Shown here: positions 4,851-34,051 of the stretch, piece by piece
Position numbering within the stretch: position 1 is the stretch's first letter
Layout of the letters: every line of letters starts with the position of its first letter
Virus record (IMG/VR): IMGVR_UViG_3300044675_005311
Coordinates: 8,653 to 72,652 of that record
Strand: one strand, 5' to 3'
DNA: 64,000 nucleotides
DNA from: a virus
Notes under the pieces: model-generated
Database searches by the model: none
Seen by the model: the letters and a program-made list of their open reading frames with translations, nothing else
What the model was told of the DNA's origin: nothing
Position numbers and translations under genes: made by a program

Positions 4851-4869
4851 AAAACCACCTCCCTAAAAT

Positions 4870-9232: not shown

Positions 9233-9277
9233 GACTTCCCAATCTTGGGTTTGCACAGACAAACATCCCAACAAGAA

Positions 9278-9382: not shown

Positions 9383-9585
9383 ATTATTTCGTGTCAAATG
9401 ATTTATATTTGACATACAAATATGGTCAAACACAAATACAAATACGGCCACATTTTACGATATTATCATATAACTTAATGTTGATAAATTGCTAATCGTA
9501 CTATGTGATTGATATTCAAGAGAATTGTGATGTTGATAAACATATATAAGTGAAAACAAAAAATCGTAAAATCAACTAAAATCCA

Positions 9586-12500
9586 ATGGTTAAAAAATAT
9601 TTAAAGGGTGGCAAAAGCGAGGGTATGTCGCTAAGTGAAGTTGCAAAAGTTCACAATATGAATGCCGAGCAATTAAGACCCCAACTTCAAAAGGGAATTA
9701 AGCACGAACTTGAACACACGGACAAGATAACCGATGCACGAAGAATTGCCCTAGACCATTTGGTAGAGTTCCCCGATTATTACGACCGCTTGGATAAGAT
9801 TGAAAAGATGCACTTGGGCGGTGATATGTCAAAACACTTAGCACCCAACGGGAAACCTAGTAACCTTACACACGAGCAATGGCACTTGGTACGCACACCC
9901 GAATTTAAGAATTGGTTTGGGGATTGGGAAAACGACCCAAAGAACGCGAGTAAGGTTGTAGATGATAATGGTGAGCCGTTAGTGGTTTATAGAGGGGATA
10001 ATGCCAATGCTAAAAAAGGATTTGTTTTCAAAACGGGTTTCAATAGAATGGGATTTATTAATAAAGATAGATTGCCTAATCAATATTTCCATTATTTTGT
10101 AAACAACTATGATGTGGCTTTAGGTTATGGGCAAAATCAAATAGAAAGCCATAACGAAAAAGTTGAGGAAACGGGGAAAGGTAAATTGTGGGAAGCAAAA
10201 GTGACACCTTACTTTTTAAATATTCGGAATCTAATAGATATTACGCCTAATAATCCATCATTTCCCACTTTTAAAGAATTTGAGAATGAATTAAAAAATG
10301 AAATGGGGGAAGAGTGGTTTCAACATTGGAAATATCAACACCCTTATAATTATGGAACACGAATAAGCAATAGTTATTTGAATAAATTGTTTGAAGACAA
10401 GTTGGGTAAAGATTATTTAGAAGATAGGTACATTTCTAAATGGCAAAAGGAAGGATTCGCAAATAATAAAACAAATAAAGATTCATATGAATTTTTTATT
10501 GAATTTAAAAATAGGAGTTCTTCTAGCGATATTCTTAATAAAGTAGTTCGTAGTATGTTAGAAAAGAATGTTGATGGTCTTGTGTTTTTGGAATTAACTC
10601 ATTGGGATGGTGGATTTTGGGGCAATTATAAAAAATATGAATCGGGGGAATTAAAATATGATTACAAAAGATGGATAGAAAAGCCAAAAGTGTTTGCGAC
10701 TTTAAATTCCAATCAAATCAAGTTAGCCGATGGCACGAACACTACATTCGATGGTGAGAACCTCGATATTAGATATAAGCGTGGTGGACGCACAATATCG
10801 CAAACACCCGCACCCAAGTCGGATAGAGTCGTTGGTAGCAAAACAAACCCAAAAGGGAGTGCTAGTGATAGTAAACTAGGGAAATCAATTAAGTTCAACG
10901 ATAGCCTAGAAAAAGCCATCCAAAACAAAGTGGATGCGTATAACGAAAAGCATTCGAGCGACAAAGTGAGTTTGTCAACGGCTAAAGCGATTGTAAGGCG
11001 CGGTATGGGTGCATATTCGACATCACATAGACCAACCATAAGCGGAGGTGCGCCTAATAGTCGCCAAGCGTGGGGATTGGCTAGATTGAATAAGTTCTTG
11101 CTAAAAAAGGCGGGAGTGAAAGTGAAAAGTGCTTATATTCAAGATGATGATTTGTTGAAGTACGCCAATGGTGGCGAAGTAGTCGCAAAAAATGAGGATA
11201 TTCGTAGTAATTTTAATACAATGGACAAAGAAGTAAAACACACTATGGGAAAAGCGGGTGGCTATTTAGTTGGTCGTCGTCACACCGAAGGCGGTATAAA
11301 GGCAATGAACAAAGCAACGGGACAACCTTTGGAAATGGAGGGCGGTGAAGTTGTAATCACGCGCAATGCCGTGTCGGATTCAAAGACGAGAGAGTTTGAA
11401 GGGCAAATGCTAACAAACCGCGAAATTTTGTCAAAAATCAACGAGAGTGGTGGTGGTGTTTCTTTTGAAGACGGCGGTGAGGTGATGGTATGTGGCAACC
11501 AATACAACTATGGGGGTACTCTTATGTCCGACCACGATATATTGCATCAAATGGCCGTTGGTGGCGAATTAGATGATATGAATGAAATGGAGTTTGAGTA
11601 TGGCGGTGATGTATCGGATTTCAAACTAAAGAATAAGATTGTATTTCCAATCAACGATGTAGATAGCGCATATTATGTAAACATTTTTGAAGACCCTATG
11701 GACTTACAAATATTTAAGGTTGATGTAAGCGTTAGAGGTAGTGGAAGACCTATTTTTAAGGGATTTACAAAATGGTCAAAAGATGAGTTCGTATCGAAGA
11801 GAAGTTATCAATTCTACAACCGAAAAGATTTTTTGACTCTCATTGAACCGCAGGCGCAGACTTATGGGGTGATAACTCCAAGACCATTTACCCAAATACC
11901 AAAAAAATCTATGCTTATACCTAGGATGCCAAATACGAGGGCTATGTATGATAGGTTTACTTCAATTTTGGACGTTGGGATGCAAAATGTGCCATCTCAA
12001 TATAATACCGACGCTAAAACTAAATTTAATTGGCTTCTTGGTAATCCTACTTTCCAAGAGAATATTATCGAGTTTTTTGATGAGTGGGCAATACAAGAGC
12101 CGAACTTTATTTATGAAGAGGGTGTCAAAAAGAAAGTTGTCCGCGCTAAAAAAGAAGATAAGTTCCAATATGGTATTGAGTCTATAAAGTTTGGTAAAAG
12201 TTGGGAGGATGAATTGAAGCCTTACAACAATAAACTTGTAAAGAATGATGGTCAAAATTCATTGGTAAATTTACTTACAAAAGTAATTAAAGAATTTTAT
12301 CTAACCGATTTAACTAATCCTAATTTAAAATTATATGAAGATAGGACGATGGAAATACCCGTAAAAGAATTATCATTAATTCAAAAAAATGGGGGTGTTA
12401 AAATGGATTATGGTATAACGGCGGTTGGTTTGCGTAATATAGAAATGAGAACCACCGACCCCACAAGAAATAAATTACTTAATAAAAAATCGGGTTACAA

Positions 12501-14256: not shown

Positions 14257-14259
14257 ATT

Positions 14260-16656: not shown

Positions 16657-16673
16657 AAAGTAAAAAAACACAA

Positions 16674-18065
16674 ATGGATAATCAATCAAACATAGCGAGA
16701 TTAGAGGATTTGGCAAAAAATTCTCCCGTTCCTTTAGTTCGTGAACAAGCACAAAAAGAATTAGACAAACTTGCCTCCATAGGTAGCGTTCAAGTTCAAT
16801 CCGTAAATGCGGGTGTAACGGGTTTAGACCCCGATGTACAAGCCGTTTTGGATGCCTTGAATATGGCCGTGCAAGGGGGTGGAGTAGCCAACATCAATGA
16901 TATTCGCCAAGTCGTAATAGATGAGTTAGCAAAACGAAAAATCAATTTCAATGATTTGTCCGATAGCCTTAAAGCATTGCTTAATTCTACTCGTAAAGTA
17001 GAATTGACCATTCGTAATATTGCCTCGGTTCAAACTACCACAACGACAAGTAATGATTTCTTGACGCGTCCTATCATTCAAAAGATTTTGAGTGATATGC
17101 AAGCGGAGAACAACGTGTATTTGTATGGTGGCGCGGGTACGGGAAAGACATTTAGTGCGGGGGGTATTGCCAAATTGTTGGGTTGGTCAATCATTACAAT
17201 CAATTGTAACCAATTTACATCGCCAATTGATATTATCGGTGGTCAAACCATTGATGGTTATCAAGAGGGTAAATTCACTATGGCGTGGTCGAATGAAATT
17301 ATTGACGACAACGGCAATATGAAAAAAGTAGATGGTTGCGTATTGCTATTGGATGAGTTGCCAAAAATTGACCCCAACACGGCGGGTTTGTTGAACGAAG
17401 GTTTAGCCAAAATCAAAGAATACGACTATGACCCGAATACGGGTACACGAATTCCTCCAAGCATTTTGAATGGTAGGGGCGAGAGAAAATACTTGGGTAA
17501 TTGTTTCATAATGGCTGCGGGTAACGTACCACTAAATACCATTGACCCCGATTACGAAGCCAACTTTAAGCAAGATTTGTCTTTGCAAGATAGATTCATC
17601 GGTAGTACATATAAAGTGTTTGTGGATTACTCTTATGAGTTTAGTTCAATTATGAAAGGTTATGCGTTCATTTGGATTTTTGGCACAAAACTTCGTGAGG
17701 CTATCATTCGTTTGAATGCAACAAACCAAGCGTTTGTTTCTATTCGTTTGATGCAAAACTTAAAGGCTACTTATGATGTTTATCGTATTGAAAAAGAGAA
17801 AAATGATAAGGGTATGGCGACGACAATTACAAGCCCGAAAACAATCATAGACTCTCTTAATACTTTCTTTGAATTGTTCAAACCATCCACCCGTTCCGCA
17901 CTATTAGCCGAATTGGATATTGACGGATTTAAGCGCGTTGTAGCCGAAAAAGATAAAATGCCGTTTGACAAAAAAGCACCTGACTTTAACACCCCATCGG
18001 AGGTGCAAGAGGCACAACAAATGATTTCCAATTACGAAGCGACACAACTTTCTAGAGTTATCTAA
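16674..18065 (+). CDS. MoxR/CbbQ-like AAA+ ATPase
   Basis: Walker A GGAGTGKT, Walker B LLLDE, AAGN sensor, QDLSLQDRF Arg finger, SIR. Confidence 0.85.
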   Translation: MDNQSNIARLEDLAKNSPVPLVREQAQKELDKLASIGSVQVQSVNAGVTGLDPDVQAVLDALNMAVQGGGVANINDIRQVVIDELAKRKINFNDLSDSLKALLNSTRKVELTIRNIASVQTTTTTSNDFLTRPIIQKILSDMQAENNVYLYGGAGTGKTFSAGGIAKLLGWSIITINCNQFTSPIDIIGGQTIDGYQEGKFTMAWSNEIIDDNGNMKKVDGCVLLLDELPKIDPNTAGLLNEGLAKIKEYDYDPNTGTRIPPSILNGRGERKYLGNCFIMAAGNVPLNTIDPDYEANFKQDLSLQDRFIGSTYKVFVDYSYEFSSIMKGYAFIWIFGTKLREAIIRLNATNQAFVSIRLMQNLKATYDVYRIEKEKNDKGMATTITSPKTIIDSLNTFFELFKPSTRSALLAELDIDGFKRVVAEKDKMPFDKKAPDFNTPSEVQEAQQMISNYEATQLSRVI

Positions 18066-19714
18066 TGGGATTTTTTAGTAGTTGGAGAGGCTTGCCCGTA
18101 TTTTGTTGGGCGTATGACACGCCCGAAGCGTGGCAAGATGCGTTTGGCAAAGATTTGTATAAAGATAGAATAAAGGATTACTCTAAAGTTTATGATGCCG
18201 AAATAGCACCTATTCTTTTTGAAATGGGAATGAAGTTTAACTTGGGTGGTGAGCAAGACAAAAGTCGTCTTGAAACAACATCAAGGCCCATAGGTGTATT
18301 TGATTTTTCGTTGGCGAGTAAAGGACTATATCGTGTTCAAGAATATTACTCTCAAGAACTTGCCATAGACCATCCCAATTTATTTGATACATTTGAATTG
18401 CCGTCGGGAATTGTGCCACCCAATTTAGTCGACAATATTACGATAGGCGGTGTTAAGAATTTTGTTTATAACCACAATGGTAAAATGTATGTTCTTGACA
18501 AAAGGCAAAAAGGCACAACCGCTATCAATGATGGAGAAAAAGATGCTAAATTAAAATTTGCCACATCTACTAAAGACGTTTATTTGAAATTTAAACGTGT
18601 TGGTGGTAAAGTAAAGTATGCGGAAATTTATTCTTTATTTTACTATACAAGCCTTGATGGTAATGATGAATTTGCTATAAGACACCTACCCGCATTGATG
18701 ACGGCCGAATACTTTGAAAGTATGGGTATTAAGACACGTGTTTATATGACAAGATTTTGCAACCCCGAAGAAACGGGTACATTACGTCAAAATGATTTGC
18801 TAACAAATGCCGAGTTACCTATGTACACTCAACAAGTAAATTATAGTGGCTCGTCGCGATTTGACGACGAGATTATTTTCGCACCGATTATAGTTAAAGA
18901 TTTTGGTCAAGAACTCGATTGGAAGTCTTGTTTAGTGGTTAGTCAAAATGACTCGCACGCAATTTACGATGGCGTAGTAAAGAATATGTTGAGGAACGAA
19001 ATTGATGGTAGAATTATTTCACCTTATGGTAGCCCCGACCAAACTCAAGAAAGATATCTAGAAGCATTTGCAAGGTACAAGGAGAAATACCAATTGTATG
19101 TAAAAGCGGGGATTTGGAAGAGTAAAGAAATTCAAGAGGACTCTCAATTATTGTTTCACTCACAAAGTATTAGACGACATTTGTCGGATGTTAGGGATAG
19201 TATGCAACGCGCATACTCCAATAATAATAAAAATCAAGTACGAAGGTGGAAAGACATTCTTGAAGGAAGCGTAGTTGCAAGAACTTTTTTTGAATGGTGG
19301 ATGAAAACCGCTGCGGGTCGTTGTCGTGACACCCTTATGATTATGAATGCAAAAGAGCCACGCAAAGAAATGCAAAAGGTCATTGATGAATTAAAGGCTA
19401 GAATTGATGACATTAATTCTTATTTGCTAATTGTTGTTCCTCAAACCTATGCAACTAATAATGCGAAAAATGATTTAGAGAAAGAAATTGCTAGAATAAT
19501 AGTCCAAAATGATTTCGTTAAAGAAATTCTTCAAAGTGAGGGATTGATGATGGATTTTAATGGAGAATACAAATATGAAACCTATTTGAACCGAATTATT
19601 ACCGACGCTACTACCTATGCGAGTAACCCTTTGTTTGCAACCGATGATGATACGATAGAGCGATTGAATGAAAGAGCGGATTTATTGTATAACGACATTA
19701 AGTTAAGGAGTTAA
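18065..19714 (+). CDS. Probable AAA+ partner protein (degenerate VWA-like?)
   Basis: TAATG-coupled to MoxR AAA; AEYFESMGIKTRVY segment; no clear MIDAS motif. Confidence 0.45.
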   Translation: MGFFSSWRGLPVFCWAYDTPEAWQDAFGKDLYKDRIKDYSKVYDAEIAPILFEMGMKFNLGGEQDKSRLETTSRPIGVFDFSLASKGLYRVQEYYSQELAIDHPNLFDTFELPSGIVPPNLVDNITIGGVKNFVYNHNGKMYVLDKRQKGTTAINDGEKDAKLKFATSTKDVYLKFKRVGGKVKYAEIYSLFYYTSLDGNDEFAIRHLPALMTAEYFESMGIKTRVYMTRFCNPEETGTLRQNDLLTNAELPMYTQQVNYSGSSRFDDEIIFAPIIVKDFGQELDWKSCLVVSQNDSHAIYDGVVKNMLRNEIDGRIISPYGSPDQTQERYLEAFARYKEKYQLYVKAGIWKSKEIQEDSQLLFHSQSIRRHLSDVRDSMQRAYSNNNKNQVRRWKDILEGSVVARTFFEWWMKTAAGRCRDTLMIMNAKEPRKEMQKVIDELKARIDDINSYLLIVVPQTYATNNAKNDLEKEIARIIVQNDFVKEILQSEGLMMDFNGEYKYETYLNRIITDATTYASNPLFATDDDTIERLNERADLLYNDIKLRS

Positions 19715-19732
19715 AAAATATAATTAAACACT

Positions 19733-20044
19733 ATGGAAATTACCCAAGTACAAGAATTAGGATTAAAAAAGTTGATGGCAAATATTGCCACATTTTCTAA
19801 TCTATATGGTAGCATTACCAATTTGATGATAATGACCAACCCAAGTTTTTCCACATCAATTTTTGTGAAATATGATAAGCAATTTGGATTGGTAAAAGAT
19901 AGAAGGCTAGAAATAAACATTGTCGAAATAAACGATAGGGGTGAAATTGTGGTTTTGAACGATGTATTTAAAGGGATATATGAGCGGTACACATTCTTAG
20001 GTGAGTGCTTACCGATTGAAGCAAACGAACTAATTGTAATGTAA
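19733..20044 (+). CDS. Hypothetical protein
   Basis: In-operon ORF with A-rich upstream. Confidence 0.6.
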   Translation: MEITQVQELGLKKLMANIATFSNLYGSITNLMIMTNPSFSTSIFVKYDKQFGLVKDRRLEINIVEINDRGEIVVLNDVFKGIYERYTFLGECLPIEANELIVM

Positions 20045-21828
20045 TGGACGTAATAGAAGCATTGGGAGGTTGGAGAAATGTCAACCAAGAAAAACTAGAA
20101 CAAATCAAGGTGGATAACCCACCCTTGTATAATGCCATTACAAAAGCAATTAACTTGTTGGCAAAAAAGTATGGGGGCGAAGATATTGTAATTGAAAAAC
20201 CAATGGAGGTAGTTGAGGAAAAGGCAACTACTATTGAAAGCGAAGTGGAATCCGATTATGCCTTTCTTAAAAGAATGGAAATATTAAATTTAACCAAAGG
20301 AGAATATATTTTTAGGAGTGATATTGTCGACTCTATGATGAGAGAGATTAATGTAGATTTTATTTCCGTTAGAGAAAAGTATGAATCATCCGTGCAACAA
20401 AAACTTGACGATTTAGATGCGCGGGGTTTAGTATCAGAATTATCACTTGACATATATAAAATTAGTAATGCGGGTAAAGCATTGATTGATAGTTTTGAAT
20501 TGAAAAACAAACAACTTGAGGAATTAGGGCCGAGTGACGAAGACCTCAAATTGGAAATATTGCAACGGATGGCGGATTATTATGATGGTAATGAATTTCA
20601 ATCATTAAGCCAAGATGATATAATTACAAACGCCGTAAAACACCAATTTGATATTCCATCAAATAAATATTTTGGTATTGTCGTAAAATTATTACGAGAT
20701 GGATTTGTTGAAAAAGACCCAAATGGGCCAACGGATTCTATTAGCCTTACAATGGAAGGGTATGATAAATCACAAGGTTGGTTTGAAGTAAATCCAAACG
20801 AAGAAGAACCAAGTGAAAATTTGGATGTCCCATACTTGCGAATGATTCAAAAATTGAAAGAGAGAAAAGGTGATTGGGTAACTATTGAAGATATTGTAGC
20901 GGAAAAGGGTGTTCCCAATATGCTTACAAGACAAGAATATATCGATGCTCAAAAGACTATATTGGATGATTTAGAGAAAAGAGATTTGGTAAATAGAGTA
21001 GCGAACGAATATATTTTAAGTTATAATGGTCAAAAATTATTAGCCTTAAACCCCGAAATAGAAACCCCAATAGAAGAACCTGCTCAAGCGCAATTAAGCG
21101 ATTTACTAATAAGCATTTTAGAAGCGGTGCAAGAAGTGAGTGCAATAAAACGTGGGGGTGGTTTTGTTTCAATAAAAGAAATTTGGCCATACAATATGGG
21201 AATAATGCCTATAAATTATGCGGTTTATCAAATGGATTTGACTACCCCAAGTTTACAACAAGATTTGGCAATTTTATATTTGGGAGGATATTTGGAACAA
21301 ACAAATTATGGAGGGACTAATGAACCAAAAAATTATAGGTATCGTTTGAGCCAAAAAGGTAAGGACTTTTTGAACTTTGTAAATGTTTTGAAAAAAACAC
21401 AACCAACACCGCCAACAACCACAACCAATTTACGACCATCGCCTACCGATAGCGCAACTATGTACCCTACGGGAAGAATTAAAGTCGGTAACGATGCAAA
21501 TCTATGGAAAGTTACGGAGAACAAGAATGGTGTGAAGCGTTGGGTAAAGGTTGGTGGTATTCCGAGTGAATTACCCGACCCAACGAATGTAGATTTAGGT
21601 ACTTACACAATGGACAAAGCGGGTCAAACTTATAGAGTTTCGCTTGTTAAAGGCAATAAAAAAGAATGGGTAGAAGTTGACTCAATTGCCAACCCTACAC
21701 CCGTAGAAACACCCATTTCCGAAATTGACGAAGATGAAGTAGATTTGGATATTTTAGAACAACAATTAAATGACGACTCTTTGGAGTTTGATTTAACCGA
21801 CGAAGACTTAGACAATTTAGAATTTTAA
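20044..21828 (+). CDS. Multi winged-helix protein with RPSP...GND...W...NG.KRW module and acidic tail
   Basis: Four segments ending L...G(L/F/Y)V/L...Y.(I/L)(S/T)..G; LRPSPTDSATMYPTGRIKVGNDANLWKV. Confidence 0.6.
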   Translation: MDVIEALGGWRNVNQEKLEQIKVDNPPLYNAITKAINLLAKKYGGEDIVIEKPMEVVEEKATTIESEVESDYAFLKRMEILNLTKGEYIFRSDIVDSMMREINVDFISVREKYESSVQQKLDDLDARGLVSELSLDIYKISNAGKALIDSFELKNKQLEELGPSDEDLKLEILQRMADYYDGNEFQSLSQDDIITNAVKHQFDIPSNKYFGIVVKLLRDGFVEKDPNGPTDSISLTMEGYDKSQGWFEVNPNEEEPSENLDVPYLRMIQKLKERKGDWVTIEDIVAEKGVPNMLTRQEYIDAQKTILDDLEKRDLVNRVANEYILSYNGQKLLALNPEIETPIEEPAQAQLSDLLISILEAVQEVSAIKRGGGFVSIKEIWPYNMGIMPINYAVYQMDLTTPSLQQDLAILYLGGYLEQTNYGGTNEPKNYRYRLSQKGKDFLNFVNVLKKTQPTPPTTTTNLRPSPTDSATMYPTGRIKVGNDANLWKVTENKNGVKRWVKVGGIPSELPDPTNVDLGTYTMDKAGQTYRVSLVKGNKKEWVEVDSIANPTPVETPISEIDEDEVDLDILEQQLNDDSLEFDLTDEDLDNLEF

Positions 21829-21832
21829 ACCG

Positions 21833-24800
21833 ATGAAAGAATCAATAAAAAAGAAGTTCGACTCTATCGACAAATCAAAAATAAAGGTAGAATCAACAAA
21901 AGAATTTTTAGGAAAACTTGAGAAAGGACTCAATAGTAAAACACAAGAAAATGCTGACAAGGCGGAAGCATTGCTAGACAAATTCATTGCCCAAGCAAAG
22001 GCAAAGAACGCGGATATTTTCGTATCTAATAAGCCCGCACCTACACTTACACCTACCGCTAAGAAAAAGGCCAACCAAGTCGTTAAAAGCAAATTGGATT
22101 CCCTTATGGACACCATTGCTAATGACCCGTTGTTGAAGGACTTTAACAACTCGCGTAGGACAAAAGGCGGTGGAAAGAGCGACCCATTGATTGATAGCGA
22201 AAGAAAGGCTATTCAAAGTGGCCCTAGGATATCTAAGCAAGGTTGGAAGAACCAATATGGTAAAAGCACGGGTGGTCGTAAGTACTACGAGTACCGCGAA
22301 AACCGCATTGATAGAAAAGCACCAAATTACGGAAGTAGGCCGTGGCTAAAAGAGGGCGGATTCATTCACCCTAGCGATGCCAATGCCGACAAATACGTCG
22401 TGGTTGAAATCAAAGCGGATGGTTCAAGAAGAGAACACAACCATTTCGGTGATTTGGAAACGGCTAGGATGTTTGCGTCATTGAAGCGTGAGTTTTTACC
22501 AAAGGGTAGCCAATTGATGATTGAGGACAAAAACGGAAAGAATTTGTATCGTAGTTTCAAGAGTGGTGGCTATATGGCCGATGGTGGAATGATGGCTAAA
22601 GGTGGTGTAATTGAGGAGGGTGATGATGTTTTTGTAAAACCCGAAAAATTGAATGCGGAAGTAGTTCGTATTACGGGGGAAAATGTTGTAGTAGAATTTT
22701 ATAATAGAAGACCCGAAGGTGGTGAGAAGAGAGGGAATTATAAAATTAAAGACCTTAAAAAGATGGCCAATGGTGGTATGATGGCAAAGGGTGGAAAGGC
22801 TTATTATTTAAAGCCTCAGGAGAATATTGACAAGTTGTTTGAGCGTCAGAAAAAACGACTCGCTGATATGAAACGAAATGATGACCAATTGATGTTGTTG
22901 CAAGGCATAAATTACTTAAATAAAAAAAATGATGAAGATGAAGAAAAGTATGTCATTTTGTTTTTTGAGTCTGAAACACCATTTACTCGATTTGATTTAG
23001 AGTATCATAGAGAAAAATTAATCAAATTAGGGTATTTAGCAGATATAGATGAAACATATTTGGTAACACCGAAAGGTGAAGAGTATTTAAAACAACATAA
23101 TGAAAAAGAGTTGGCGAGAAAAATGGCCAATGGTGGAATGATGGCCAAAGGTGGTGTAATTGAGGAGGGTGATGATGTTTTTGTAAAACCCGAAAAATTG
23201 AATGCGGAAGTAGTTCGTATTACGGGGGAAAATGTTGTAGTAGAATTTTACGATAGAAGACCCGAAGGTGGTGAGAAGAGAGGAAATTATAAAATTAAAG
23301 ACCTAAAGAAATTGGCCAATGGTGGTATGATGGCCGATGGTGGCAAAGTTAGATGGCAAGATGTTTATGTTGGTGACAACGCATTGGTGATAGCCGAAAA
23401 CAAGATGGGTATGGTAGTGAAGCCTTATGGCCGTAGATTCCATTTGAAGTTCCCCGATGGTTCGGAAAAAACCTATTCGGCGGAAGAGTTGGAGTTTTTC
23501 AAGGATGAGGAATTTGCCAAAGGTGGTTATACCAACAAACGAAATGTACTTAGTTTGGTTGTCAAAAACCCAAATAAGAATGGGATTAAAAAATATTTGT
23601 CTATTAATCCAAAAGACTTTTTAGATGGATTGCACGAATATGCCAAAGGTGGTAAATTAACCGATGATTATACTTACATCAAGCGTAGCGAAGTTGAACA
23701 CGTCATATATCGCGATAGCAATGGTAAAGAGCAATTAGATTTCAAACCCAAGAATGGATTTTGGGTAAGCAAAAAGGCACTTGTTGATGCGGGTATGAAT
23801 GAAACAAAAGCCAAGTTTGATGCTAAAGAGGTTGCCAACGAATTAACTGCTTTATCCAACAAAGCGTGGGACACTTTATCAATTCAAAGCGGAAGTGAAA
23901 TTTATGCCTCCGACGATTTGCAAGAGAATTTAGCCGATGAATATCGAAAAGTAGGTATTGATAAAATTTACGGACAACTTACCCAACCCGAACGCAAAAA
24001 AGTAAGCGCGGTACTTACCGATGAGAACGAGCATAGTTTGAGAAACTACCTTGCGTTACGCGGTTATAATGGCGAAGCGGAATTTAAGAATTATGCAAAA
24101 ATGTACGACGAGTCATTTGCAAAATTTGGATATAGGTCAAATTGGAATCCCAAAAATGTAGATTTAAAACTTGGGTCATTTGCCAAAGGTGGTATGATGA
24201 CCGATGATGAAGGAAATTCAATTAATTTAAAAGTTGGAGATAAAGTTGTTGAATACAAAAGACCAAGTTCGGATAAACCGAAAAAACAATATGGTGGTCA
24301 AGGTGAGATAATTTCAATTAATGGCGCAATGGCTAAAGTATTTTTTGATTCAACGAACTATGAAAAATTTTATCCTTTGAAAGACCTTAAAAAGATGGCT
24401 AATGGTGGAATGATGGCCAAAGGCGGGACTATTGCCGATGGAGAAAAACTACCCGAAGATATGGGTAGGTACTTTATCAAGACTAGCAAGACCAAAGTGG
24501 TGAATATGTCCGATTTGATTCCGTTGCGCAAACGTGCTACGGGTATCGCTAATGCCGAGAAAAATATGAAGATGGCTTACGATGGAGAAATGGATAAGCG
24601 TAAGCCTATCACTATCTACAAGAGCCAACGCAAGTATCGCATAATGGATGGTAACTCTACCTATGCGGTTGCAAAAGCAAACGGATGGGAAACCATTTGG
24701 GCCGAGATTGTCAAGAACCCCAATATGAAAAACGGACTTAAACGCACCGATGATATTTTTTCAAGAGCAAAATCAATTCGTAAAGAAGGAGAGGCTTGGA

Positions 24801-24835
24801 AAGATGCGTTACAACGTGCAAAAGCAATGAAATAA
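21833..24835 (+). CDS. Modular protein with about 15 [MFYL]xxGG linkers; KOW/SH3-like, wHTH and C-terminal ParB-like modules
   Basis: MADGG/MAKGG/MANGG/FAKGG/YAKGG; IEEGDDVFV, LKVGDKVV; RKPITIY...YRIMDGNSTYAVAK. Confidence 0.8.
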   Translation: MKESIKKKFDSIDKSKIKVESTKEFLGKLEKGLNSKTQENADKAEALLDKFIAQAKAKNADIFVSNKPAPTLTPTAKKKANQVVKSKLDSLMDTIANDPLLKDFNNSRRTKGGGKSDPLIDSERKAIQSGPRISKQGWKNQYGKSTGGRKYYEYRENRIDRKAPNYGSRPWLKEGGFIHPSDANADKYVVVEIKADGSRREHNHFGDLETARMFASLKREFLPKGSQLMIEDKNGKNLYRSFKSGGYMADGGMMAKGGVIEEGDDVFVKPEKLNAEVVRITGENVVVEFYNRRPEGGEKRGNYKIKDLKKMANGGMMAKGGKAYYLKPQENIDKLFERQKKRLADMKRNDDQLMLLQGINYLNKKNDEDEEKYVILFFESETPFTRFDLEYHREKLIKLGYLADIDETYLVTPKGEEYLKQHNEKELARKMANGGMMAKGGVIEEGDDVFVKPEKLNAEVVRITGENVVVEFYDRRPEGGEKRGNYKIKDLKKLANGGMMADGGKVRWQDVYVGDNALVIAENKMGMVVKPYGRRFHLKFPDGSEKTYSAEELEFFKDEEFAKGGYTNKRNVLSLVVKNPNKNGIKKYLSINPKDFLDGLHEYAKGGKLTDDYTYIKRSEVEHVIYRDSNGKEQLDFKPKNGFWVSKKALVDAGMNETKAKFDAKEVANELTALSNKAWDTLSIQSGSEIYASDDLQENLADEYRKVGIDKIYGQLTQPERKKVSAVLTDENEHSLRNYLALRGYNGEAEFKNYAKMYDESFAKFGYRSNWNPKNVDLKLGSFAKGGMMTDDEGNSINLKVGDKVVEYKRPSSDKPKKQYGGQGEIISINGAMAKVFFDSTNYEKFYPLKDLKKMANGGMMAKGGTIADGEKLPEDMGRYFIKTSKTKVVNMSDLIPLRKRATGIANAEKNMKMAYDGEMDKRKPITIYKSQRKYRIMDGNSTYAVAKANGWETIWAEIVKNPNMKNGLKRTDDIFSRAKSIRKEGEAWKDALQRAKAMK
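22581..22785 (+). repeat. Direct repeat copy 1 (~205 bp; KOW module with flanking linkers)
   Basis: Near-identical to 23130-23334. Confidence 0.9.
23130..23334 (+). repeat. Direct repeat copy 2
   Basis: Offset 549 bp from copy 1; few, mostly synonymous differences. Confidence 0.9.
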
Positions 24836-25950
24836 TGAAACTATTTACTAAAGCCGACCAAACACTACTACAAAGCCAATGGGGTTTCGGAAGTGACCTT
24901 AAATCCCAAATGGTGTTTGTTAAAATATTCGAGCCTATGCGTAGGGTGTTTTACTATGTAGTGAACCAAGACCCGAACGACCCCGAAAAGATATTCGCGC
25001 TAGAAAAAAGCAATAAGGATGTCAAGTTGGGTTTCTTTCGCAAGAGTGCTATCGAGAATGCCAAATTACCGCCTTACGGATTGCGATTTGAACGCGATAT
25101 GTATTTCAAGCCCGTTTCCGCCCAAGAGTTGTTGGACGGCTTGATAGAGGGTAAGTATTACGCTAAGGGCGGTGAAATCGTTGTGGACATAAACGAAAAG
25201 GTGTACGACAAAGGAAATTACAAAGCAATATTCGGTGACTTCGATAAGGATGGTGTTCCTAACGTAGATGACCCAAACCCGTATAGAAGCGGGGATGAAA
25301 AGTCAATCGAGCAAGTTAGGTTTAGCAAAGTTTTCGCCAAGGTGTTAGACACCAAGATGCAAATGGATAGGCCAATGTATGACATTGTTGAAAAACTAAA
25401 AACAATAGCGCCCAAGGGTTCTAAAATTATCGCTAGGACAAAAACACCTTTTAGCATATTGAATAAGTTGGTCAACAAAAAAATGAATAACATCGAGCCT
25501 AGTATAGCGGGTGACGTGGATGGTTTGACCGACCTAGTGGGAACTACAATCCTAGTAAGCAATTTCCGTTCACTTGACTCTTTGAAGAACAAAATTCTCA
25601 AAGGCGCAATAGGGCAAATATTGGAGTTCAAAGATTATTACGCACATCCAAAAGCGGGGTATATGGCTTACCACTTTATTACTCTTTTCGAGGGCGTGGC
25701 GATAGAAGTTCAAATTAAGACCAAGCGTATGAAACTTTTGAACCAAGCGTCACACTTTGCCTACAAGGAAGAAACATTGGATGCAAAGAAGTTGTTGTAC
25801 TACTCTCAAGTGATGGATAGAGCCGATAAAGGTGATAGAGAAGCCATTCAAGAAGCGAACGATATATTAAGGGATAGGGACAAACTTGCGTATGATTTTT
25901 TCATAAACAAGGCGGAGTATAACCCAAAGAAGCATATTTTTGAAGATTAA
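24835..25950 (+). CDS. DUF2958-like domain fused via YAKGG to RelA/SpoT (small alarmone synthetase) domain
   Basis: N-term ...FERDMYFKP; RTKTPFSILNK, DLVG, GYMAYH, EVQIKT, HFAYK synthetase motifs; start ATG 24835 overlaps upstream TAA. Confidence 0.8.
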   Translation: MKLFTKADQTLLQSQWGFGSDLKSQMVFVKIFEPMRRVFYYVVNQDPNDPEKIFALEKSNKDVKLGFFRKSAIENAKLPPYGLRFERDMYFKPVSAQELLDGLIEGKYYAKGGEIVVDINEKVYDKGNYKAIFGDFDKDGVPNVDDPNPYRSGDEKSIEQVRFSKVFAKVLDTKMQMDRPMYDIVEKLKTIAPKGSKIIARTKTPFSILNKLVNKKMNNIEPSIAGDVDGLTDLVGTTILVSNFRSLDSLKNKILKGAIGQILEFKDYYAHPKAGYMAYHFITLFEGVAIEVQIKTKRMKLLNQASHFAYKEETLDAKKLLYYSQVMDRADKGDREAIQEANDILRDRDKLAYDFFINKAEYNPKKHIFED

Positions 25951-25967
25951 TTATAAAAAAAGACAAT

Positions 25968-26402
25968 ATGAAACGGATTAACGAAACATTGGCTAAAATC
26001 GGGTGTGGCATCACCGATTTGCCCGAACAAATTCAAGAGCGCATCACTTCAATTGAAAAATTGAAAGTGCAAATTGACGAAGCACAAAAAGAGTATGACG
26101 AAAACCCAACCGAAGAGGTGAAAGCCAAATTGGATGATGTTTCCGATTACTACGAAGATTACATTCTAGAAACGTGCGAAACCATTGAAGAGTGGAACGA
26201 ATGGATGATTACTAAAAAGGAAGAAGCCAAAGCGAAAGCAAAAGCCGATGCCGAGCGTAAACAAGCACCCGCACCCGCACCCGTGGTTACCCCCGTCCCC
26301 GAACCCGTTAAGAAAAAAGGAATCGGATTGGGTGGAATCATTATTGGAGTAGCGGTACTTGCCATCACCTTGGGGGCGGTAAATGTAATGAAAGATAAAT
26401 AA
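25968..26402 (+). CDS. Coiled-coil protein with C-terminal TM
   Basis: KKKGIGLGGIIIGVAVLAITLGAV. Confidence 0.7.
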   Translation: MKRINETLAKIGCGITDLPEQIQERITSIEKLKVQIDEAQKEYDENPTEEVKAKLDDVSDYYEDYILETCETIEEWNEWMITKKEEAKAKAKADAERKQAPAPAPVVTPVPEPVKKKGIGLGGIIIGVAVLAITLGAVNVMKDK

Positions 26403-26608
26403 TGGAAGTAACGGCTAATCAAGTATATCACATTTTTGACCCGCAACCTATAAGGTTGTTGGATGTGGTATTTGTTGGCCCACTTATGATTTATGCGGGT
26501 GTGGAAGGAAACTTTCACCCCACAATAAAATTATCACTTATTGTCGTTGGATTTGCAACAATATATTACAACGGAGTCAATTATCACAAGAACTACAATG
26601 GCATATAG
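26402..26608 (+). CDS. Small two-TM membrane protein
   Basis: IRLLDVVFVGPLMIYAG...TIYYNG. Confidence 0.65.
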   Translation: MEVTANQVYHIFDPQPIRLLDVVFVGPLMIYAGVEGNFHPTIKLSLIVVGFATIYYNGVNYHKNYNGI

Positions 26609-26891
26609 GATAACAAATTATACAAAGGCTCAAGCCAAGAAACTCGGAGTTAGTGTTCGAGCATCGTCGGTTAAAGGCAAGAAAATAGATGTTGTCAAGG
26701 ACGGCAAAAAAGTAGCATCCGTTGGTGCAATTGGGTACAACGACTTTCCAACTTTTAAGCGATTAGAAGAAAGAGGTCAAGTACCCAAAGGAACGGCGGA
26801 TAAGCGAAGAGCATTGTATAAAAATAGACACGACAAAGACCGAAAAAAGGTTGGTAGTCGTGGTTATTATGCTGACAAATTGCTTTGGTAA
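26598..26891 (+). CDS. Basic DUF5754-like protein
   Basis: GKKIDV...GAIGYNDF...RRALYKNRH...GYYADKLLW; start ATG 26598. Confidence 0.65.
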   Translation: MAYRITNYTKAQAKKLGVSVRASSVKGKKIDVVKDGKKVASVGAIGYNDFPTFKRLEERGQVPKGTADKRRALYKNRHDKDRKKVGSRGYYADKLLW

Positions 26892-26903
26892 ACAAACAAG
26901 AAT

Positions 26904-27482
26904 ATGAATTTTAGCAACGATAAAATTGGAAAAGCCGTCAAGTTAAAAGGGTATGCCTTTTTCGAGGACGGAGAATTTAATGTTAACATCGTCGGTGTAC
27001 GCAATAGCGCAACGGGTAAAAGAGTGACTAACGCATTCGACGATTGGATGACTTTGAGTTACAAAAAAGACGGAGTATGGAAATACCACGAGTGGCCTTG
27101 TACGACGGACAATGGCGCGGGTACGGCCCGTGTTGTAGAAGGTCAATATCGCGGTTCTCATATCATTCGTAAACATCAAGGAAAGTACGACGCGGTGTGC
27201 CAAGATAGGCCCATCAAAGTTTATCGCGACTATGTAGCGGACGGAGTCTATGATGAATCAAAAATTCAAGAGGGTGTATTCGGTATCAACATTCACAAAG
27301 CGGGTGCGGATAGCATTCAAGTAAATGATTGGTCACACGGATGCCAAGTGTTCAAGCGTGAAAAGGACTTTAACGAGTTCTTGGAAATTTGCAAAAAAGC
27401 GATGGCAATTCACGGAAACCGATTTACCTATACTTTGATTAATAGCAATGACATCGCTATCGCCAACCCACCTATGGTATGA
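26904..27482 (+). CDS. Putative endolysin, L,D-transpeptidase-like His/Cys
   Basis: NIVGVR, NAFDD, GQY, GINIHKAG, WSHGCQV. Confidence 0.65.
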   Translation: MNFSNDKIGKAVKLKGYAFFEDGEFNVNIVGVRNSATGKRVTNAFDDWMTLSYKKDGVWKYHEWPCTTDNGAGTARVVEGQYRGSHIIRKHQGKYDAVCQDRPIKVYRDYVADGVYDESKIQEGVFGINIHKAGADSIQVNDWSHGCQVFKREKDFNEFLEICKKAMAIHGNRFTYTLINSNDIAIANPPMV

Positions 27483-27631
27483 CCACAAATCAAAAAACCA
27501 TAGCACTTGTATCGTTCGTCATTTTGGTGGCGGGTGGTTTTGCATATTTTTATTTTCGTAAAGTATCAGTTCCATTGGAGGGCGTGGATAAAAAGGACAT
27601 TGAGGAATTAAAACAAATTAGAATGGTATGA
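27479..27631 (+). CDS. 50-aa N-terminal TM protein (not in ORF track)
   Basis: MTTNQKTIALVSFVILVAGGFAYFYFRK; ATGA overlaps at both ends. Confidence 0.65.
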   Translation: MTTNQKTIALVSFVILVAGGFAYFYFRKVSVPLEGVDKKDIEELKQIRMV

Positions 27632-28386
27632 GTTACGACATAAAAATTCCCGCAATTAATAAAGAACATAAAGTTCCTAGCAATCAGCCCTCGTGGAAAG
27701 ACCAAGCCATTTCCATAGTGAAAAAATACAAAGGTTTGTATGGTAAGCAATTTCAAGATGCTAGTAACTTAACGGGTATTCCCGTGTGGATGTTAGTAGG
27801 ATTTGCTAGTGTTGAAGGTATGGGTGCAAAGAATGAAACTTTGACAAACGCAACGCCATCAATTATGCAAATGAATCCACGAACCGCGTGGCAAACAATG
27901 AAAGACCAACTTGCTAAAACAAGCGTTACGATTGGAGATTTTTATCCTTTGTATTCCTTGTTACCTACTATTTTTGTGGTTAAAAGAGCAATACCAAAGA
28001 ATTTTTGGGATAGTTCTAATATTAATGTTCGTCAAAATTCGGCTCAAAGTTATCTAGATATAAAGCCCGAAGAAACATCAATTGCATTGATAAGGGCTAA
28101 AATGTTGAGCGATGTGTATTTTGCAATCTTATTAGGTGGAACGCACTTAGCGCAGTTGGGCGCAAAAACAATTAAAGAATCGGGTAAGTTTAGATTAGAC
28201 CATATCATCATTCAATATAATGCGGGTACGGGTAGATTTAAAAGTGCGGTGACGAATAGGAATTTAATTAACGCAGATACTACAAGCCTAGTCAATCAAT
28301 TAGGTATTCCCGTTAGTGAAGCCTACATTATCAAACTAATGGGTACAAATGGCTTTCTAGACGTACAAAAAAAACAATTAGCATAA
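27628..28386 (+). CDS. Lytic transglycosylase (SLT)-like protein
   Basis: GIPVWMLVGFASVE (catalytic E), SIMQM, YNAG. Confidence 0.65.
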   Translation: MSYDIKIPAINKEHKVPSNQPSWKDQAISIVKKYKGLYGKQFQDASNLTGIPVWMLVGFASVEGMGAKNETLTNATPSIMQMNPRTAWQTMKDQLAKTSVTIGDFYPLYSLLPTIFVVKRAIPKNFWDSSNINVRQNSAQSYLDIKPEETSIALIRAKMLSDVYFAILLGGTHLAQLGAKTIKESGKFRLDHIIIQYNAGTGRFKSAVTNRNLINADTTSLVNQLGIPVSEAYIIKLMGTNGFLDVQKKQLA

Positions 28387-28387
28387 T

Positions 28388-28672
28388 ATGACCGCCGTAA
28401 AAAAACCATCAACAAATCCACTGCCAATTTCGTTTGAACAATTCCGCAAGAACCCCGTAGCGGGCGTGGCGTTTCTCGCATTAGTGGGCGTATCTTATTT
28501 GTACTATGATGTAAAATCAAGTTATACGGAACAACTTGAAAATAGCAACAAAAAAATAGATGCGTTGGATTTGAAAATTGACAAATTAGGGTATGCTTTG
28601 AAAAAGTCGGATTCCGCCCTTTCAAGTGCAATTACCGAACTTCGTATCATTAACACAATGAAAAAATTATGA
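28388..28672 (+). CDS. TM plus coiled-coil protein (holin/spanin-like)
   Basis: PVAGVAFLALVGVSYLYY followed by heptads. Confidence 0.55.
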   Translation: MTAVKKPSTNPLPISFEQFRKNPVAGVAFLALVGVSYLYYDVKSSYTEQLENSNKKIDALDLKIDKLGYALKKSDSALSSAITELRIINTMKKL

Positions 28673-29091
28673 AACACATTCTATTAGTATTCGTTACAAT
28701 ATTGTTGTGTATTGAAATATTTACCCCGTTGCGCGCGGTAAATCAACCGCCCGTGGATGAAATTGAAACAATGCTTAAAAAAGTAGAGGGTAACTTGAAA
28801 ATGGCTTCCGCCGTAACATCAGTGGCTAAAGCACAAGGAGAGGCACTTGTAGAAAGTAAAATTGAAGAGAAAAAAGAACTACAAGAAACTTTAGCGAAAG
28901 CCACCGATGAGTTGAAAGTCGCCACCGAAAAGGTAGAGGTATTTTCAACCCGTATGGCGGAGGTTGGCTTAGATACATCAACAACAAGTGATGTGGCTAG
29001 GTTAAGTGGCCCACTATATGAAGAATGGTTAGCATACAAAAAGAACGGCGGAGAGTCGGATTTTGAGTACTATCGCCTATATAAAAAGTAA
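28669..29091 (+). CDS. Signal/TM plus coiled-coil protein
   Basis: MKHILLVFVTILLC; coiled coil. Confidence 0.6.
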   Translation: MKHILLVFVTILLCIEIFTPLRAVNQPPVDEIETMLKKVEGNLKMASAVTSVAKAQGEALVESKIEEKKELQETLAKATDELKVATEKVEVFSTRMAEVGLDTSTTSDVARLSGPLYEEWLAYKKNGGESDFEYYRLYKK

Positions 29092-32231: not shown

Positions 32232-33242
32232 ATGGACAATACAATATCCTTTGACAACCAACCCGCGTTGGATGCGGACTACAATCCGTTACAAGAGAAT
32301 GTAAAGCAAAGACCTTACACAAGACCTAATGTAGAAGTTACCGATGCTACACCAATAGCCGAACCCGTGTTCACACCCCCATCGTTTGATGAATTACAAA
32401 ATGGGTTTGAGGCGGATATGAATGGTAGTGGTGCAAAGACGGACGATAGGACGGCTTGGGGTTTGAACGATGATGATGTTTCAAGCGCGAACCCGTATGT
32501 AGAGAATTTGGATAAGAAAGACCAACGCGCAGCCTCCGCTGCGTTAACCGATGCCGTGCTTGATGGCTACTCGCAACTAAACGGATTCGGAAACAAGTTG
32601 GTTCAATTCGACCCCGCTAAGTTTGAAGAAATGATGCGTAAAGGGGAAATTGACCCCAACATCGCGTTGCCCGTTAATGGCCAAGAAATAGGGATTCTTG
32701 ATTACATCAATGAGTACAATTCGCAAACGGCGGAAGTAATTAGCGTTTCCCAAGAATTTAAGGACAAAGTTCGTCCCGTAATGATTCGGGTAATGATGAA
32801 GCGCGGTATCGGTATGACCGATGAGCAATTACTCGCTTACTATTTCGGTGTCGATATGTTAACCAAGGGTGCTATGATTTACGGATTGCGTAAACAAAAC
32901 GCCTCGTTGATTGAAACACTTAAAGAAATGAGTAGCGGTTATACCCGACCAAGTACTCCCCCGCCCGCGCGTGAAAGTCAACCCACCCAACCTACATACG
33001 AAGAACCCGCGCCACAACCCCGTCAAGAAGCGAAGTCCGAGCGTCAATATGTAGAACCCGAAGAGGTGCAAGTGATTAAAGAAGAACCCGTACAAGATGC
33101 GGTAGTCGTTGATGAGTCAATTAGAAAAGCCCGTCAAAGACGACCCGCGCCACAATTCGGCGATACCGCTATTTTGTCGCAAATGGAAGATATTGCAAGT
33201 GGTAAAGTCAAAGGCGCACGAGGACGGAGGAAGAAAGAATGA
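32232..33242 (+). CDS. Hypothetical protein coupled to packaging ATPase
   Basis: ATGA overlap with ATPase; acidic N-terminus, Pro-rich C-terminus. Confidence 0.7.
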   Translation: MDNTISFDNQPALDADYNPLQENVKQRPYTRPNVEVTDATPIAEPVFTPPSFDELQNGFEADMNGSGAKTDDRTAWGLNDDDVSSANPYVENLDKKDQRAASAALTDAVLDGYSQLNGFGNKLVQFDPAKFEEMMRKGEIDPNIALPVNGQEIGILDYINEYNSQTAEVISVSQEFKDKVRPVMIRVMMKRGIGMTDEQLLAYYFGVDMLTKGAMIYGLRKQNASLIETLKEMSSGYTRPSTPPPARESQPTQPTYEEPAPQPRQEAKSERQYVEPEEVQVIKEEPVQDAVVVDESIRKARQRRPAPQFGDTAILSQMEDIASGKVKGARGRRKKE

Positions 33243-34051
33243 GAGAACCGCTATTAGGGGTTGCGGTTGGCCGTAAGGGCGTGGGCAAGTCTTGGACTAC
33301 CGACAAACTTATTGCCAATTATGTGTCGGGAAACCCCGCTAGTGGTATCTTAGGGCGTAAAGCGTTAATACTAGATGTTAACGATGAATATACCCACATT
33401 AAGGGTATAGCAATTAAAGACTTGATTCGTTTTTCCGTACACCCAATGGTGGAGGCTAGAAGGGTGCGACCTTTTCATCCTAACGGAAAAAAGATGACTT
33501 TGGATGACCTCGCCACTACGTTAAATATAATTCTAGACACATTTAGTGGTGGGTTGTTATTGATTGAAGATATTAACCGATTTGTAAGCGATATGATGCC
33601 TCAAGATTTAATGGGTGCTATCGCAACAAACCGACATAGGGATTTGGACATTATTCTCCACTATCAAGGTATTGGTCGTATAGGGCCGAAGGTGTGGCAA
33701 AACATCAATTGGTTGCGTTTCCATAAAATTACGGAAAGTTCCAAAAGACACCAACGTAAATATGAAGACAAATATGAGTTAATTCGTATTACCGAAATAA
33801 TGGTCGACACTCAATATTTTGGTGGCAATGAAAGATTCTACCAATATGTAGATTGTGAGAATATGAAGTTGCAAGGAAAGGTGGATGATAAAATGTTTAG
33901 CGACGCTTGTAAAGCGTATTTGAATGAGAATTATCGACGAACTATTACTCCAATGTTACAATTACGCGGTGTTGGTGGTAAAAAGCAATATACACACGAT
34001 TCCGCAATCACTCACGAGTTGGGTAGATTGAAGAAAATGTACTTAAAATAA
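33239..34051 (+). CDS. A32/P9-like FtsK-HerA genome packaging ATPase
   Basis: Walker A GRKGVGKS near the N-terminus, ILDVNDEY, Walker B LLLIED, NRHRDLDIILHYQ; 270 aa. Confidence 0.75.
   Translation: MREPLLGVAVGRKGVGKSWTTDKLIANYVSGNPASGILGRKALILDVNDEYTHIKGIAIKDLIRFSVHPMVEARRVRPFHPNGKKMTLDDLATTLNIILDTFSGGLLLIEDINRFVSDMMPQDLMGAIATNRHRDLDIILHYQGIGRIGPKVWQNINWLRFHKITESSKRHQRKYEDKYELIRITEIMVDTQYFGGNERFYQYVDCENMKLQGKVDDKMFSDACKAYLNENYRRTITPMLQLRGVGGKKQYTHDSAITHELGRLKKMYLK

Follow-up and report, generated by a model that had tools for sequence, protein, structure and literature searches.

The P0001 gene and its parts

The window analysed here is a 64,000-nucleotide stretch of viral DNA, bases 8653-72652 of the 72,652-base IMG/VR record IMGVR_UViG_3300044675_005311, for which the completeness estimate is 86%. 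Our subject is the gene P0001 (24835-25950, plus strand; positions are those of the window), which has 371 codons without an internal stop and encodes, in order, a DUF2958-like domain, a short junction, an Asp-rich loop, a RelA/SpoT synthetase and C-terminal helices. Its ATG at 24835 overlaps by one base the TAA of an upstream open reading frame (ORF) of 1000 amino acids (aa), in the sequence TAATG, and is preferred as the start over an in-frame TTG at 24796 because all of the homologues begin MKL. The gene and its parts are as follows.

24835-25950, plus strand: P0001, gene for a 371-aa two-domain protein (ORF, translation, Pfam, AlphaFold2 model)
24835-25149, plus strand: N-terminal domain, residues 1-105, a small beta-barrel with flanking helices (PF11171, model)
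25159-25173, plus strand: junction Y-A-K-G-G, residues 109-113 (conservation, model, alignment starts)
25237-25281, plus strand: Asp-rich loop DFDKDGVPNVDDPNP, residues 135-149, thrombospondin type 3-like (TSP_3 hidden Markov model [HMM], conservation)
25435-25773, plus strand: RelA_SpoT catalytic core, residues 201-313, with motifs syn1-syn5 (Pfam, invariant residues, fold matches)
25783-25896, plus strand: C-terminal helical extension, residues 317-354, with the motif A330-D331-x-G333 (model, conservation)

The synthetase domain

A preliminary description made from the DNA sequence had recognised a RelA/SpoT synthetase with intact motifs, an assignment to be given up if no RelA_SpoT HMM matched. 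P0001 matches Pfam RelA_SpoT (PF04607) at residues 201-313 with 50.8 bits (cut-off 27, E 2.3e-13), and a six-frame search of the record with this model gives 53.6 bits. Comparison with NCBIfam yields nothing more than partial matches to long RSH models, and comparison with PHROGs yields a family without assigned function. All five synthetase motifs are present: syn1 RxKxxxSxxxK (R201, K203, S207 and K211), syn2 DxxG (D233 and G236, with the Arg that follows syn2 replaced by Thr), syn3 PKxxGYxxxH (GYxxxH being G275, Y276 and H280), syn4 EVQxxT, of the form ExQxxT (E291, V292, Q293 and T296), and syn5 H..YK (H307, Y310 and K311). The catalytic residues of all five are invariant across 23 full-length P0001 homologues of 39-95% identity (alignment A1), and 45 more diverse members of 30-55% identity (alignment A3) show no variation at R201, K203, S207, K211, D233, G236, G275, Y276, H280, E291, Q293, K295, H307 and Y310. 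This pattern of conservation points to an enzyme selected for activity.

The AlphaFold2 model of P0001 has a mean predicted local distance difference test (pLDDT) score of 82, and only two stretches fall below 50, residues 110-113 in the junction and residues 150-153. A Foldseek search of the PDB places RelP first (E 5.6e-8), followed by RelQ, CapRel (E 2.6e-7), Rel and RelA; there are 70 matches at E ≤ 1e-3, and every one of those listed is an RSH enzyme. VIA-align, a structure aligner that is independent of Foldseek and yields Z-scores, gives Z 13.7 for RelP (6ewz; root-mean-square deviation 2.8 over 166 aligned residues), 12.8 for RelP from B. subtilis, 12.5 for RelQ, 11.8 for CapRel (186 residues aligned), 11.0 for Rel, 10.8 for an exported promiscuous Streptomyces synthetase, 10.1 for Tas1 and 7.3 for FaRel. 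In BFVD the fold matches are to phage proteins 981-1321 aa long that carry the names RelA/SpoT, DdrB-like or ART-PolyVal-like. The C-terminal helices (317-331, 335-345 and 348-354) are modelled with pLDDT of about 90, and A330, D331 and G333 are invariant in A1 and nearly so in A3.

The best matches by both fold and profile are RelP (SAS2/YwaC), RelQ (SAS1/YjbM), RelSeq and RelA, which have the five syn motifs in common with P0001, and the alignment of the P0001-family profile to RelSeq extends over the helices preceding syn1. However, identity to RelP, RelQ and the long RSH proteins is only 17-23%, and P0001 departs from them in the missing syn2 Arg, in an extra N-terminal strand with the Asp loop, and in C-terminal helices carrying an ADxGD motif. 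It also appears to be a phage effector, whereas these relatives are housekeeping enzymes.

A large clade of synthetase modules

With E ≤ 1e-3 as the threshold, an exhaustive phmmer search of 1.84 billion representative sequences identified 766 clusters (at 50% identity); thresholds of 1e-10 and 1e-30 leave 569 and 196, respectively. Among the 150 best representatives, to which all architecture counts refer, the synthetase module occupies an internal position in 66, the C-terminus in 63 and the N-terminus in 18, and stands by itself in three; the proteins range from 227 to 2479 aa, and in only 11 is the N-terminal domain of P0001 covered as well. Judged by these architectures, the module is a mobile cassette belonging to a large clade and residing mostly inside big phage multi-domain proteins. 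Ten large members scanned with Pfam contain SNF2 helicase, N6, Eco57I and MTS methylase, Zeta-toxin kinase and DUF6496 domains, and ART-PolyVal is present in one 622-aa relative.

A scan of species-representative bacterial genomes gave no loci with the A1 profile and 11 with the A3 profile. Two Phaeodactylibacter genomes (40-42% identity) and one Rhodothermales metagenome-assembled genome contain the closest copies; the bacterial-genome copies place the module inside proteins of 874-1400 aa that have no GG junctions. We note that in the Phaeodactylibacter loci (L011-L013) the proteins with the module and its Asp loop also contain a P-loop motif, GGLPGSGKST, which is of kinase type as read by eye only, and that one of these (L013) looks truncated or rearranged past the synthetase core.

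The Asp-rich loop and the N-terminal domain

A DxDxDG loop resembling a Ca2+-binding site and a fusion to a DUF2958-like domain had also been proposed for P0001; the loop is present in the sequence, and the fused domain is DUF2958-like at a borderline score. The loop is the sole match to the TSP_3 HMM (PF02412) in the 72,652-bp record, at residues 135-150, and the match is weak (12.5 bits, E 0.013, cut-off 25), spanning profile positions 15-30 of 36. Within the loop D137, D139, D146 and P149 are invariant in A1, and 132 of the 146 representatives that have this position show the Asp-ladder pattern DxDxDGxxDxxD. The Asp loop is a hallmark of the synthetase clade, and its ladder of acidic residues may form a Ca2+ site.

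In P0001 itself PF11171 (DUF2958) gives a borderline 16.9 bits at residues 25-93, below the 21-bit cut-off, and a precomputed PF11171 match is present in 23 of the 38 listed homologues with at least 92% coverage (42-49% identity for those carrying it). Modelled alone, the domain is a four-stranded barrel with flanking helices (pLDDT 90). It has no clear match among solved structures, the best VIA-align hit being an eL14-type SH3 barrel (Z 4.9), with none from Foldseek at E ≤ 1e-3. A search with residues 1-110 for standalone versions returned six proteins, on contigs of 531-1723 bases and probably fragments, four of which carry PF11171. The predicted complex of the N-terminal domain (1-109) with the synthetase (114-371) scored 0.01 against a mark of 0.32, in a run without controls.

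A recurrent junction motif

The two parts of P0001 are joined at Y-A-K-G-G, and several lines of evidence mark this motif as a boundary. A1 shows no variation at G112 or G113, and in 120 of the 150 best representatives the alignment to P0001 starts at residues 100-130, most commonly at Tyr109 (38/150). In the window the pattern [FYMLWIV][AS][KDEQNRS]GG occurs 20 times in the three plus-strand frames and five times in the three minus-strand frames, and 16 of the 20 are in three neighbouring genes: one in the synthetase, two in a 1556-aa protein, and 13 in the 1000-aa protein encoded immediately upstream, P0002.

9586-14256, plus strand: 1556-aa polyvalent protein with DUF5661, ART-PolyVal and DUF5824 (Pfam), PHROG 30335 and two junction motifs
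21833-24835, plus strand: P0002, 1000-aa multi-junction protein in which 13 [FYML]A[KDN]GG motifs separate small SH3-like units; the P0001 start codon overlaps its stop codon

The enrichment extends to the whole family. There are 450 occurrences of [FYMLWIV][AS]xGG in the 115,147 residues of the 150 representatives, about 19-fold more than the 23.5 +/- 4.6 found in shuffled sequences (50 rounds, maximum 36), and 120 of the proteins contain at least one. The spacings between motifs peak at 60-90 aa, which corresponds to the small SH3-like units, and at 240-280 aa, the length of the synthetase module. A logo of 117 distinct contexts reads Y/M/F (107), A (113), K (70; or D/E/Q/N), G, G, any residue, and I/V (82). 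A GG is found from 8 residues before to 12 after the expected N-terminal boundary of the module in 109 of 133 cases, and the stricter motif occurs within 25 residues in 53 of 132 cases on the upstream side and in 53 of 82 on the downstream side. There are also proteins that start or stop at the motif: at least nine representatives are ORFs that begin exactly after the GG (MKRKVKIVNEG...), eight of the 150 terminate no more than 25 residues past a motif, and the 1556-aa protein ends four residues past one (MAKGGLVKK). Codon choice for the same residues varies between the 16 window copies, so selection is at the level of the peptide, and a role for the junction as a DNA-level recombination box was rejected on this ground. 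[FYM]-A-x-G-G is a real, specific and family-wide domain boundary, and the fragment that follows the GG is, as far as the compared sequences indicate, an evolutionarily autonomous unit.

One explanation, raised in the preliminary description as activation of the enzyme by cleavage, is that YAKGG is a proteolytic site: a protease of the phage or the host would cut within A-K-G-G or behind it and so detach the synthetase from the DUF2958-like domain. Proteases of poxviruses, African swine fever virus and adenoviruses cut at AG or GG sites. The logo indicates a motif that is specific and not just flexible; together with the enrichment, the domain-sized spacings, the proteins that begin or end at the junction, and the selection on amino acids rather than codons, this speaks for cleavage. 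However, the zincin-like MPTase-PolyVal (PF18818), C39 and C48 peptidases, the sole families searched genome-wide, have no match in the record at E ≤ 1, MPTase-PolyVal has none in the ten large relatives, and Pfam scans of 22 window proteins and of the same relatives found no peptidase family. The copies of the module in Bacteroidota genomes are wholly without the motif, so the enzyme does not need it, and a docking motif or a structural cap would fit the same data. Of the earlier suggestion the junction itself stands, as a family-wide feature, while cleavage there has no direct support; we regard it as possible but somewhat doubtful. No phage paper on the motif strings was found in the literature, as judged by title.

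A YkuD-like Cys enzyme was considered as the junction protease and rejected, as it has a homologue in only one related locus (L002) whereas the junction-rich proteins are in others (L003-L009). This 192-aa protein (26904-27482, plus strand; PHROG 3000) has a weak YkuD match and an SHGC motif, which we take to resemble the catalytic site of L,D-transpeptidases.

The polyvalent-protein cluster

The synthetase closes a block of co-directional genes that encode, in order, the 1556-aa protein, a 798-aa protein, a MoxR/CobS-like AAA ATPase, 549-aa and 594-aa proteins, P0002, and P0001. The three identified domains of the 1556-aa protein lie in its first 510 residues, the roughly 1000 that follow are without a family match, and a search of the ESM Atlas with residues 531-1556 gave no usable match. 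Because ART-PolyVal is a marker of the polyvalent proteins described by Iyer et al. 2017 (PMC5512222), we assign the block to this class. Several unrelated effector domains are found here in one or in adjacent proteins, and 129 of the 150 representatives carry the synthetase module internally or C-terminally.

The stop-start overlap of P0002 and P0001 and the same gene order recur at five related loci (L003, L004, L005, L007 and L009), of which L007 was compared by its large ORFs and the overlap, and the L005 record starts within the multi-junction protein. L003, L004 and L009 share a longer run of genes: an AAA ATPase and a 549-aa protein, then a variable protein, the multi-junction protein and the synthetase, after which a 144-aa membrane protein (see below) and the genes beyond it also recur. 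P0002 counterparts with 7-11 junctions occupy the same position at five related loci. Its place and the stop-start overlap make P0001 the last unit of a polyvalent-protein cluster, with translational coupling to the gene before it. A fusion of P0002 and P0001 by -1 frameshifting was rejected, since there is no X_XXY_YYZ slippery site (by eye) and the homologues share the start Met. A promoter and terminator scan of 9200-29000 found 71 and 16 sites, compared with 62.5 and 16.1 in shuffled sequences.

The sole family match of P0002 is a weak one to MSSS SH3 (E 0.0017). Its SH3-like units are parted by double junctions (MANGGMMAKGG), and residues ~255-312 and ~438-495 are near-identical repeats. 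A ParB-like C-terminus read by eye was not borne out, with no ParB_N or ddrB-ParB match at E ≤ 1. The AAA ATPase (463 aa; AAA_5; PHROG 249) and the 549-aa protein are encoded at 16674-19714 (plus strand), and in L003, L004 and L009 they are 61-63% and 39-41% identical to those of the window, respectively.

Predicted activity and reaction product

Searched against PDB sequences, the A1 profile finds RelP at 2.6e-10, RelSeq at 1.6e-8, RelQ at 2e-7 and RelA at 1.4e-5, with CapRel at 1.7e-4, FaRel2 at 0.05 and Tas1 unlisted at E ≤ 1. The A3 profile finds RelSeq at 5.9e-11, RelP at 4.5e-10, RelA at 3e-9, RelQ at 5e-8 and FaRel2 at 0.5, with CapRel and Tas1 unlisted at E ≤ 1. Because the family profiles lie nearest to the genuine (p)ppGpp synthetases, we favour (p)ppGpp over other products of P0001, with modest confidence. 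The motif signatures lean the same way. Those given for guanosine and adenosine 3'-pyrophosphokinases, respectively, are S-x-H and G-x-N in syn3, A-V-R and R-Y-T in syn2, and I-R and Y-H in syn4 (PMC12226406). The P0001 family has A-Y-H in syn3 and I-K in syn4, which are guanosine-like, and an ambiguous G-T-T in syn2.

We think it somewhat probable that P0001 is a catalytically competent RelA/SpoT-type pyrophosphokinase and one unit of the polyvalent effector set of the phage. In the infected cell it would transfer the beta,gamma-pyrophosphate of ATP to the 3'-OH of a purine nucleotide, most likely GDP or GTP, giving (p)ppGpp, and the resulting alarmone state would curb host transcription, translation and nucleotide metabolism early in infection; the protein would be delivered with the DNA or immediately after it. 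The preliminary description had likewise seen P0001 as a host shut-off factor or manipulator of the stringent response, and the same reading has been given for polyvalent proteins, with RelA/SpoT listed among their phage-type domains and predicted to shut down or alter host transcription and translation in an alarmone-like manner (PMC5512222).

Several observations weigh against this interpretation. The syn2 G-T-T lacks the Arg of the RSH consensus and ends in the Thr of the Apk signature R-Y-T. Swapping signatures failed to convert specificity (PMC12226406), so they are weak predictors and provide a lean only. The folds of CapRel (Z 11.8) and Tas1 (Z 10.1) are not far behind those of RelP and RelQ. 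The record has no match to MuF, ddrB-ParB or MPTase-PolyVal that would speak for packaging into the virion. Finally, according to a 2026 preprint, phage infection meets a barrier in the stringent response (10.64898/2026.01.27.700999), so a benefit to the phage from (p)ppGpp is not obvious, and that the phage gains from the product of P0001 is our inference.

The strongest of the alternatives is that P0001 is an adenosine 3'-pyrophosphokinase that makes (pp)pApp from ATP and arrests or kills the host by draining ATP and ADP, as for Tas1/Apk1, FaRel and MuF-Apk2. Capsid-associated phage (pp)pApp synthetases do exist in the form of MuF-Apk2 (PMC12226406; PMC12691689), Tas1 and the exported promiscuous synthetase are among the fold matches, and the final Thr of syn2 agrees with the Apk signature. 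However, syn3 and syn4 are of the guanosine type, Tas1 is missed by both profiles at E ≤ 1, there is no match to MuF (PF04233) in the record at E ≤ 1, and no immunity gene of the (p)ppApp-hydrolase HD type was found, with neither HD_4 nor HD giving a match at E ≤ 1 anywhere in the 86%-complete record. We therefore consider this alternative unlikely.

A second alternative, included among the activities envisaged in the preliminary description, is pyrophosphorylation of the tRNA 3'-CCA end in the manner of the toxSAS enzymes CapRel, FaRel2 and PhRel2, by which the phage would stop host translation. CapRel is a strong match by fold, and P0001 has kept the acceptor-stacking G-loop Tyr (Y276), a residue that toxSAS enzymes keep too. 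The profile distances make it less likely, the E-values for CapRel and FaRel2 being 10^5- to 10^8-fold weaker than those for RelP and RelSeq. In addition, a non-selective enzyme of this kind would harm a phage that needs host translation, and the record has only one tRNA gene, for tRNA-Met. A tRNA target seems quite improbable.

P0001 might also be one half of a toxin-antitoxin or superinfection-exclusion pair like gp29/gp30 of Mycobacterium phage Phrann, in which a small downstream gene would encode the immunity factor.

25968-26402, plus strand: 144-aa ORF with an acidic N-terminus and a C-terminal transmembrane segment, a conserved neighbour 17 bases downstream of P0001

Homologues of this ORF lie downstream at six related loci (L002, L003, L004, L005, L006 and L009), and toxSAS pairs are known in phages (PMC7229694). 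However, the whole region is syntenic and the adjacency is unspecific; at L008 the synthetase is part of a 766-aa fusion protein and no counterpart of the 144-aa ORF was found; and the majority of the 150 representatives have the module at an internal or C-terminal position in large proteins and not in a bicistronic arrangement. The 144-aa protein has a transmembrane anchor, and to our knowledge the known toxSAS antitoxins have none of this kind. We consider such a pair very improbable, and on these genomic arrangements P0001 is probably not a toxin-antitoxin toxSAS. The absence of an adjacent hydrolase, noted previously, agrees with the lack of HD_4 and HD matches; the parallel statement that there is no obvious antitoxin needs qualifying to the extent that a conserved membrane ORF is adjacent, albeit one that none of the comparisons links to the enzyme. 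We note that the 144-aa ORF is followed by one for a 68-aa, apparently two-pass membrane protein (25968-26608 for the two, plus strand).

That P0001 is a catalytically dead structural or binding remnant is exceedingly improbable, since all of the catalytic motifs are invariant in 45 members down to ~30% identity, indicating purifying selection on the active site.

Relationship to known systems

The closest parallel is with the polyvalent proteins of PMC5512222, in which a RelA/SpoT nucleotidyltransferase domain is one of many effector domains in large phage proteins, and as there the module co-occurs with ART-PolyVal, SNF2, methylase and kinase domains. The differences are that the module described here belongs to a lake-water phage clade with relatives in Bacteroidota genomes, and has the TSP3-like loop and the [FYM]AxGG junctions; in P0001 it is also in a separate, coupled 371-aa gene and fused to a DUF2958-like domain. 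The main text of PMC5512222, its supplement aside, makes no mention of linkers or of glycine, and it names the MPTase metallopeptidase as the processing enzyme of polyvalent proteins.

MuF-Apk2 is similar in being a phage pyrophosphokinase of the RSH fold attached to a would-be virion-carrying domain, and its product is (p)ppApp only (PMC12226406, PMC12691689). P0001 differs from it in having no MuF, in its non-Apk syn3 and syn4, and in the absence of a recognised immunity gene. The toxSAS enzymes (CapRel, PhRel/Phrann gp29, PhRel2, FaRel2 and FaRel; PMC7229694) are also RSH-fold toxins of phages and prophages, and CapRel is a good match in fold (Z 11.8). In contrast to these, no conserved toxin-antitoxin gene pair particular to the module was found, and the profile similarity to them is much weaker. 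For the most part the toxSAS enzymes work on behalf of the host or of a prophage, against other phages; P0001 would act as an effector of the phage itself.

The type of enzyme and its use by phages are already known, whereas the size of the clade, the Asp loop, the DUF2958-like fusion and above all the recurrent junction motif look new. We know of only a handful of cases of phage-made alarmones, namely Phrann gp29, PhRel2 and MuF-Apk2, and P0001 points to a much larger unstudied reservoir of 766 clusters, mostly cassettes in giant phage effector proteins. If the product is indeed (p)ppGpp, these phages would deliberately trigger a response that is otherwise treated as a barrier to infection, and host shut-off, blocking of rival phages and blunting of defence are candidate explanations. 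The junction motif makes it possible to test how polyvalent proteins are partitioned into functional parts, a task that the 2017 description assigned to a metallopeptidase (PMC5512222) that has no match in this record.

A broader and rather unlikely extension of these ideas is that [FYM]-A-K-G-G is a processing or sorting signal in a hitherto undescribed beads-on-a-string system of effector delivery, used by uncultivated freshwater phages whose hosts are probably Bacteroidota. Each junction would be a place where the polyvalent proteins are cut or docked, the RelA/SpoT bead would come free as the part that follows the GG, and the Asp loop would act as a Ca2+ switch, the enzyme being silent or stable at the millimolar Ca2+ of the virion surroundings and firing at the sub-micromolar free Ca2+ of the cytoplasm.

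Other features of the record

No cultured relatives of the virus were found among 50,697 phage records, either by megablast with 7 kb or by tblastn with P0001 and a conserved 270-aa ATPase. Twenty-four lake-water or freshwater metagenome runs share at least 69% of the sampled words of the window, 13 of which are not flagged as a possible source; no RNA runs are listed among the sequencing runs that share window DNA.

Genes for a conserved 336-aa protein and the 270-aa protein are at 32232-34051 (plus strand). The 270-aa protein, which shows 73-75% identity between related phages, gives a borderline match to the HerA/DUF87 ATPases (23.0 bits, cut-off 23.2), and the possibility of a tailless virus with HerA/FtsK-type packaging was dropped because it rests on this one sub-cut-off match. 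PDB sequence searches with the two proteins gave no match, and the ESM Atlas matches of the 336-aa protein are to unnamed viral clusters and nothing else. No family match to a terminase, portal or capsid protein was found among 42 ORFs scanned with PHROGs and/or Pfam.

At the left end of the window (690-7362, plus strand) are genes for a nucleotide-sugar epimerase, two methyltransferases (one a C-methyltransferase) and two glycosyltransferases, and a sulfotransferase gene is at 47087-47908 (plus strand). This sugar-modifying cluster and the sulfotransferase may be involved in modification of DNA or of the cell surface. The single tRNA gene, tRNA-Met (CAT), is at 8344-8416 (plus strand), between a ParB-like gene (PHROG 12305) and an acetyltransferase gene.

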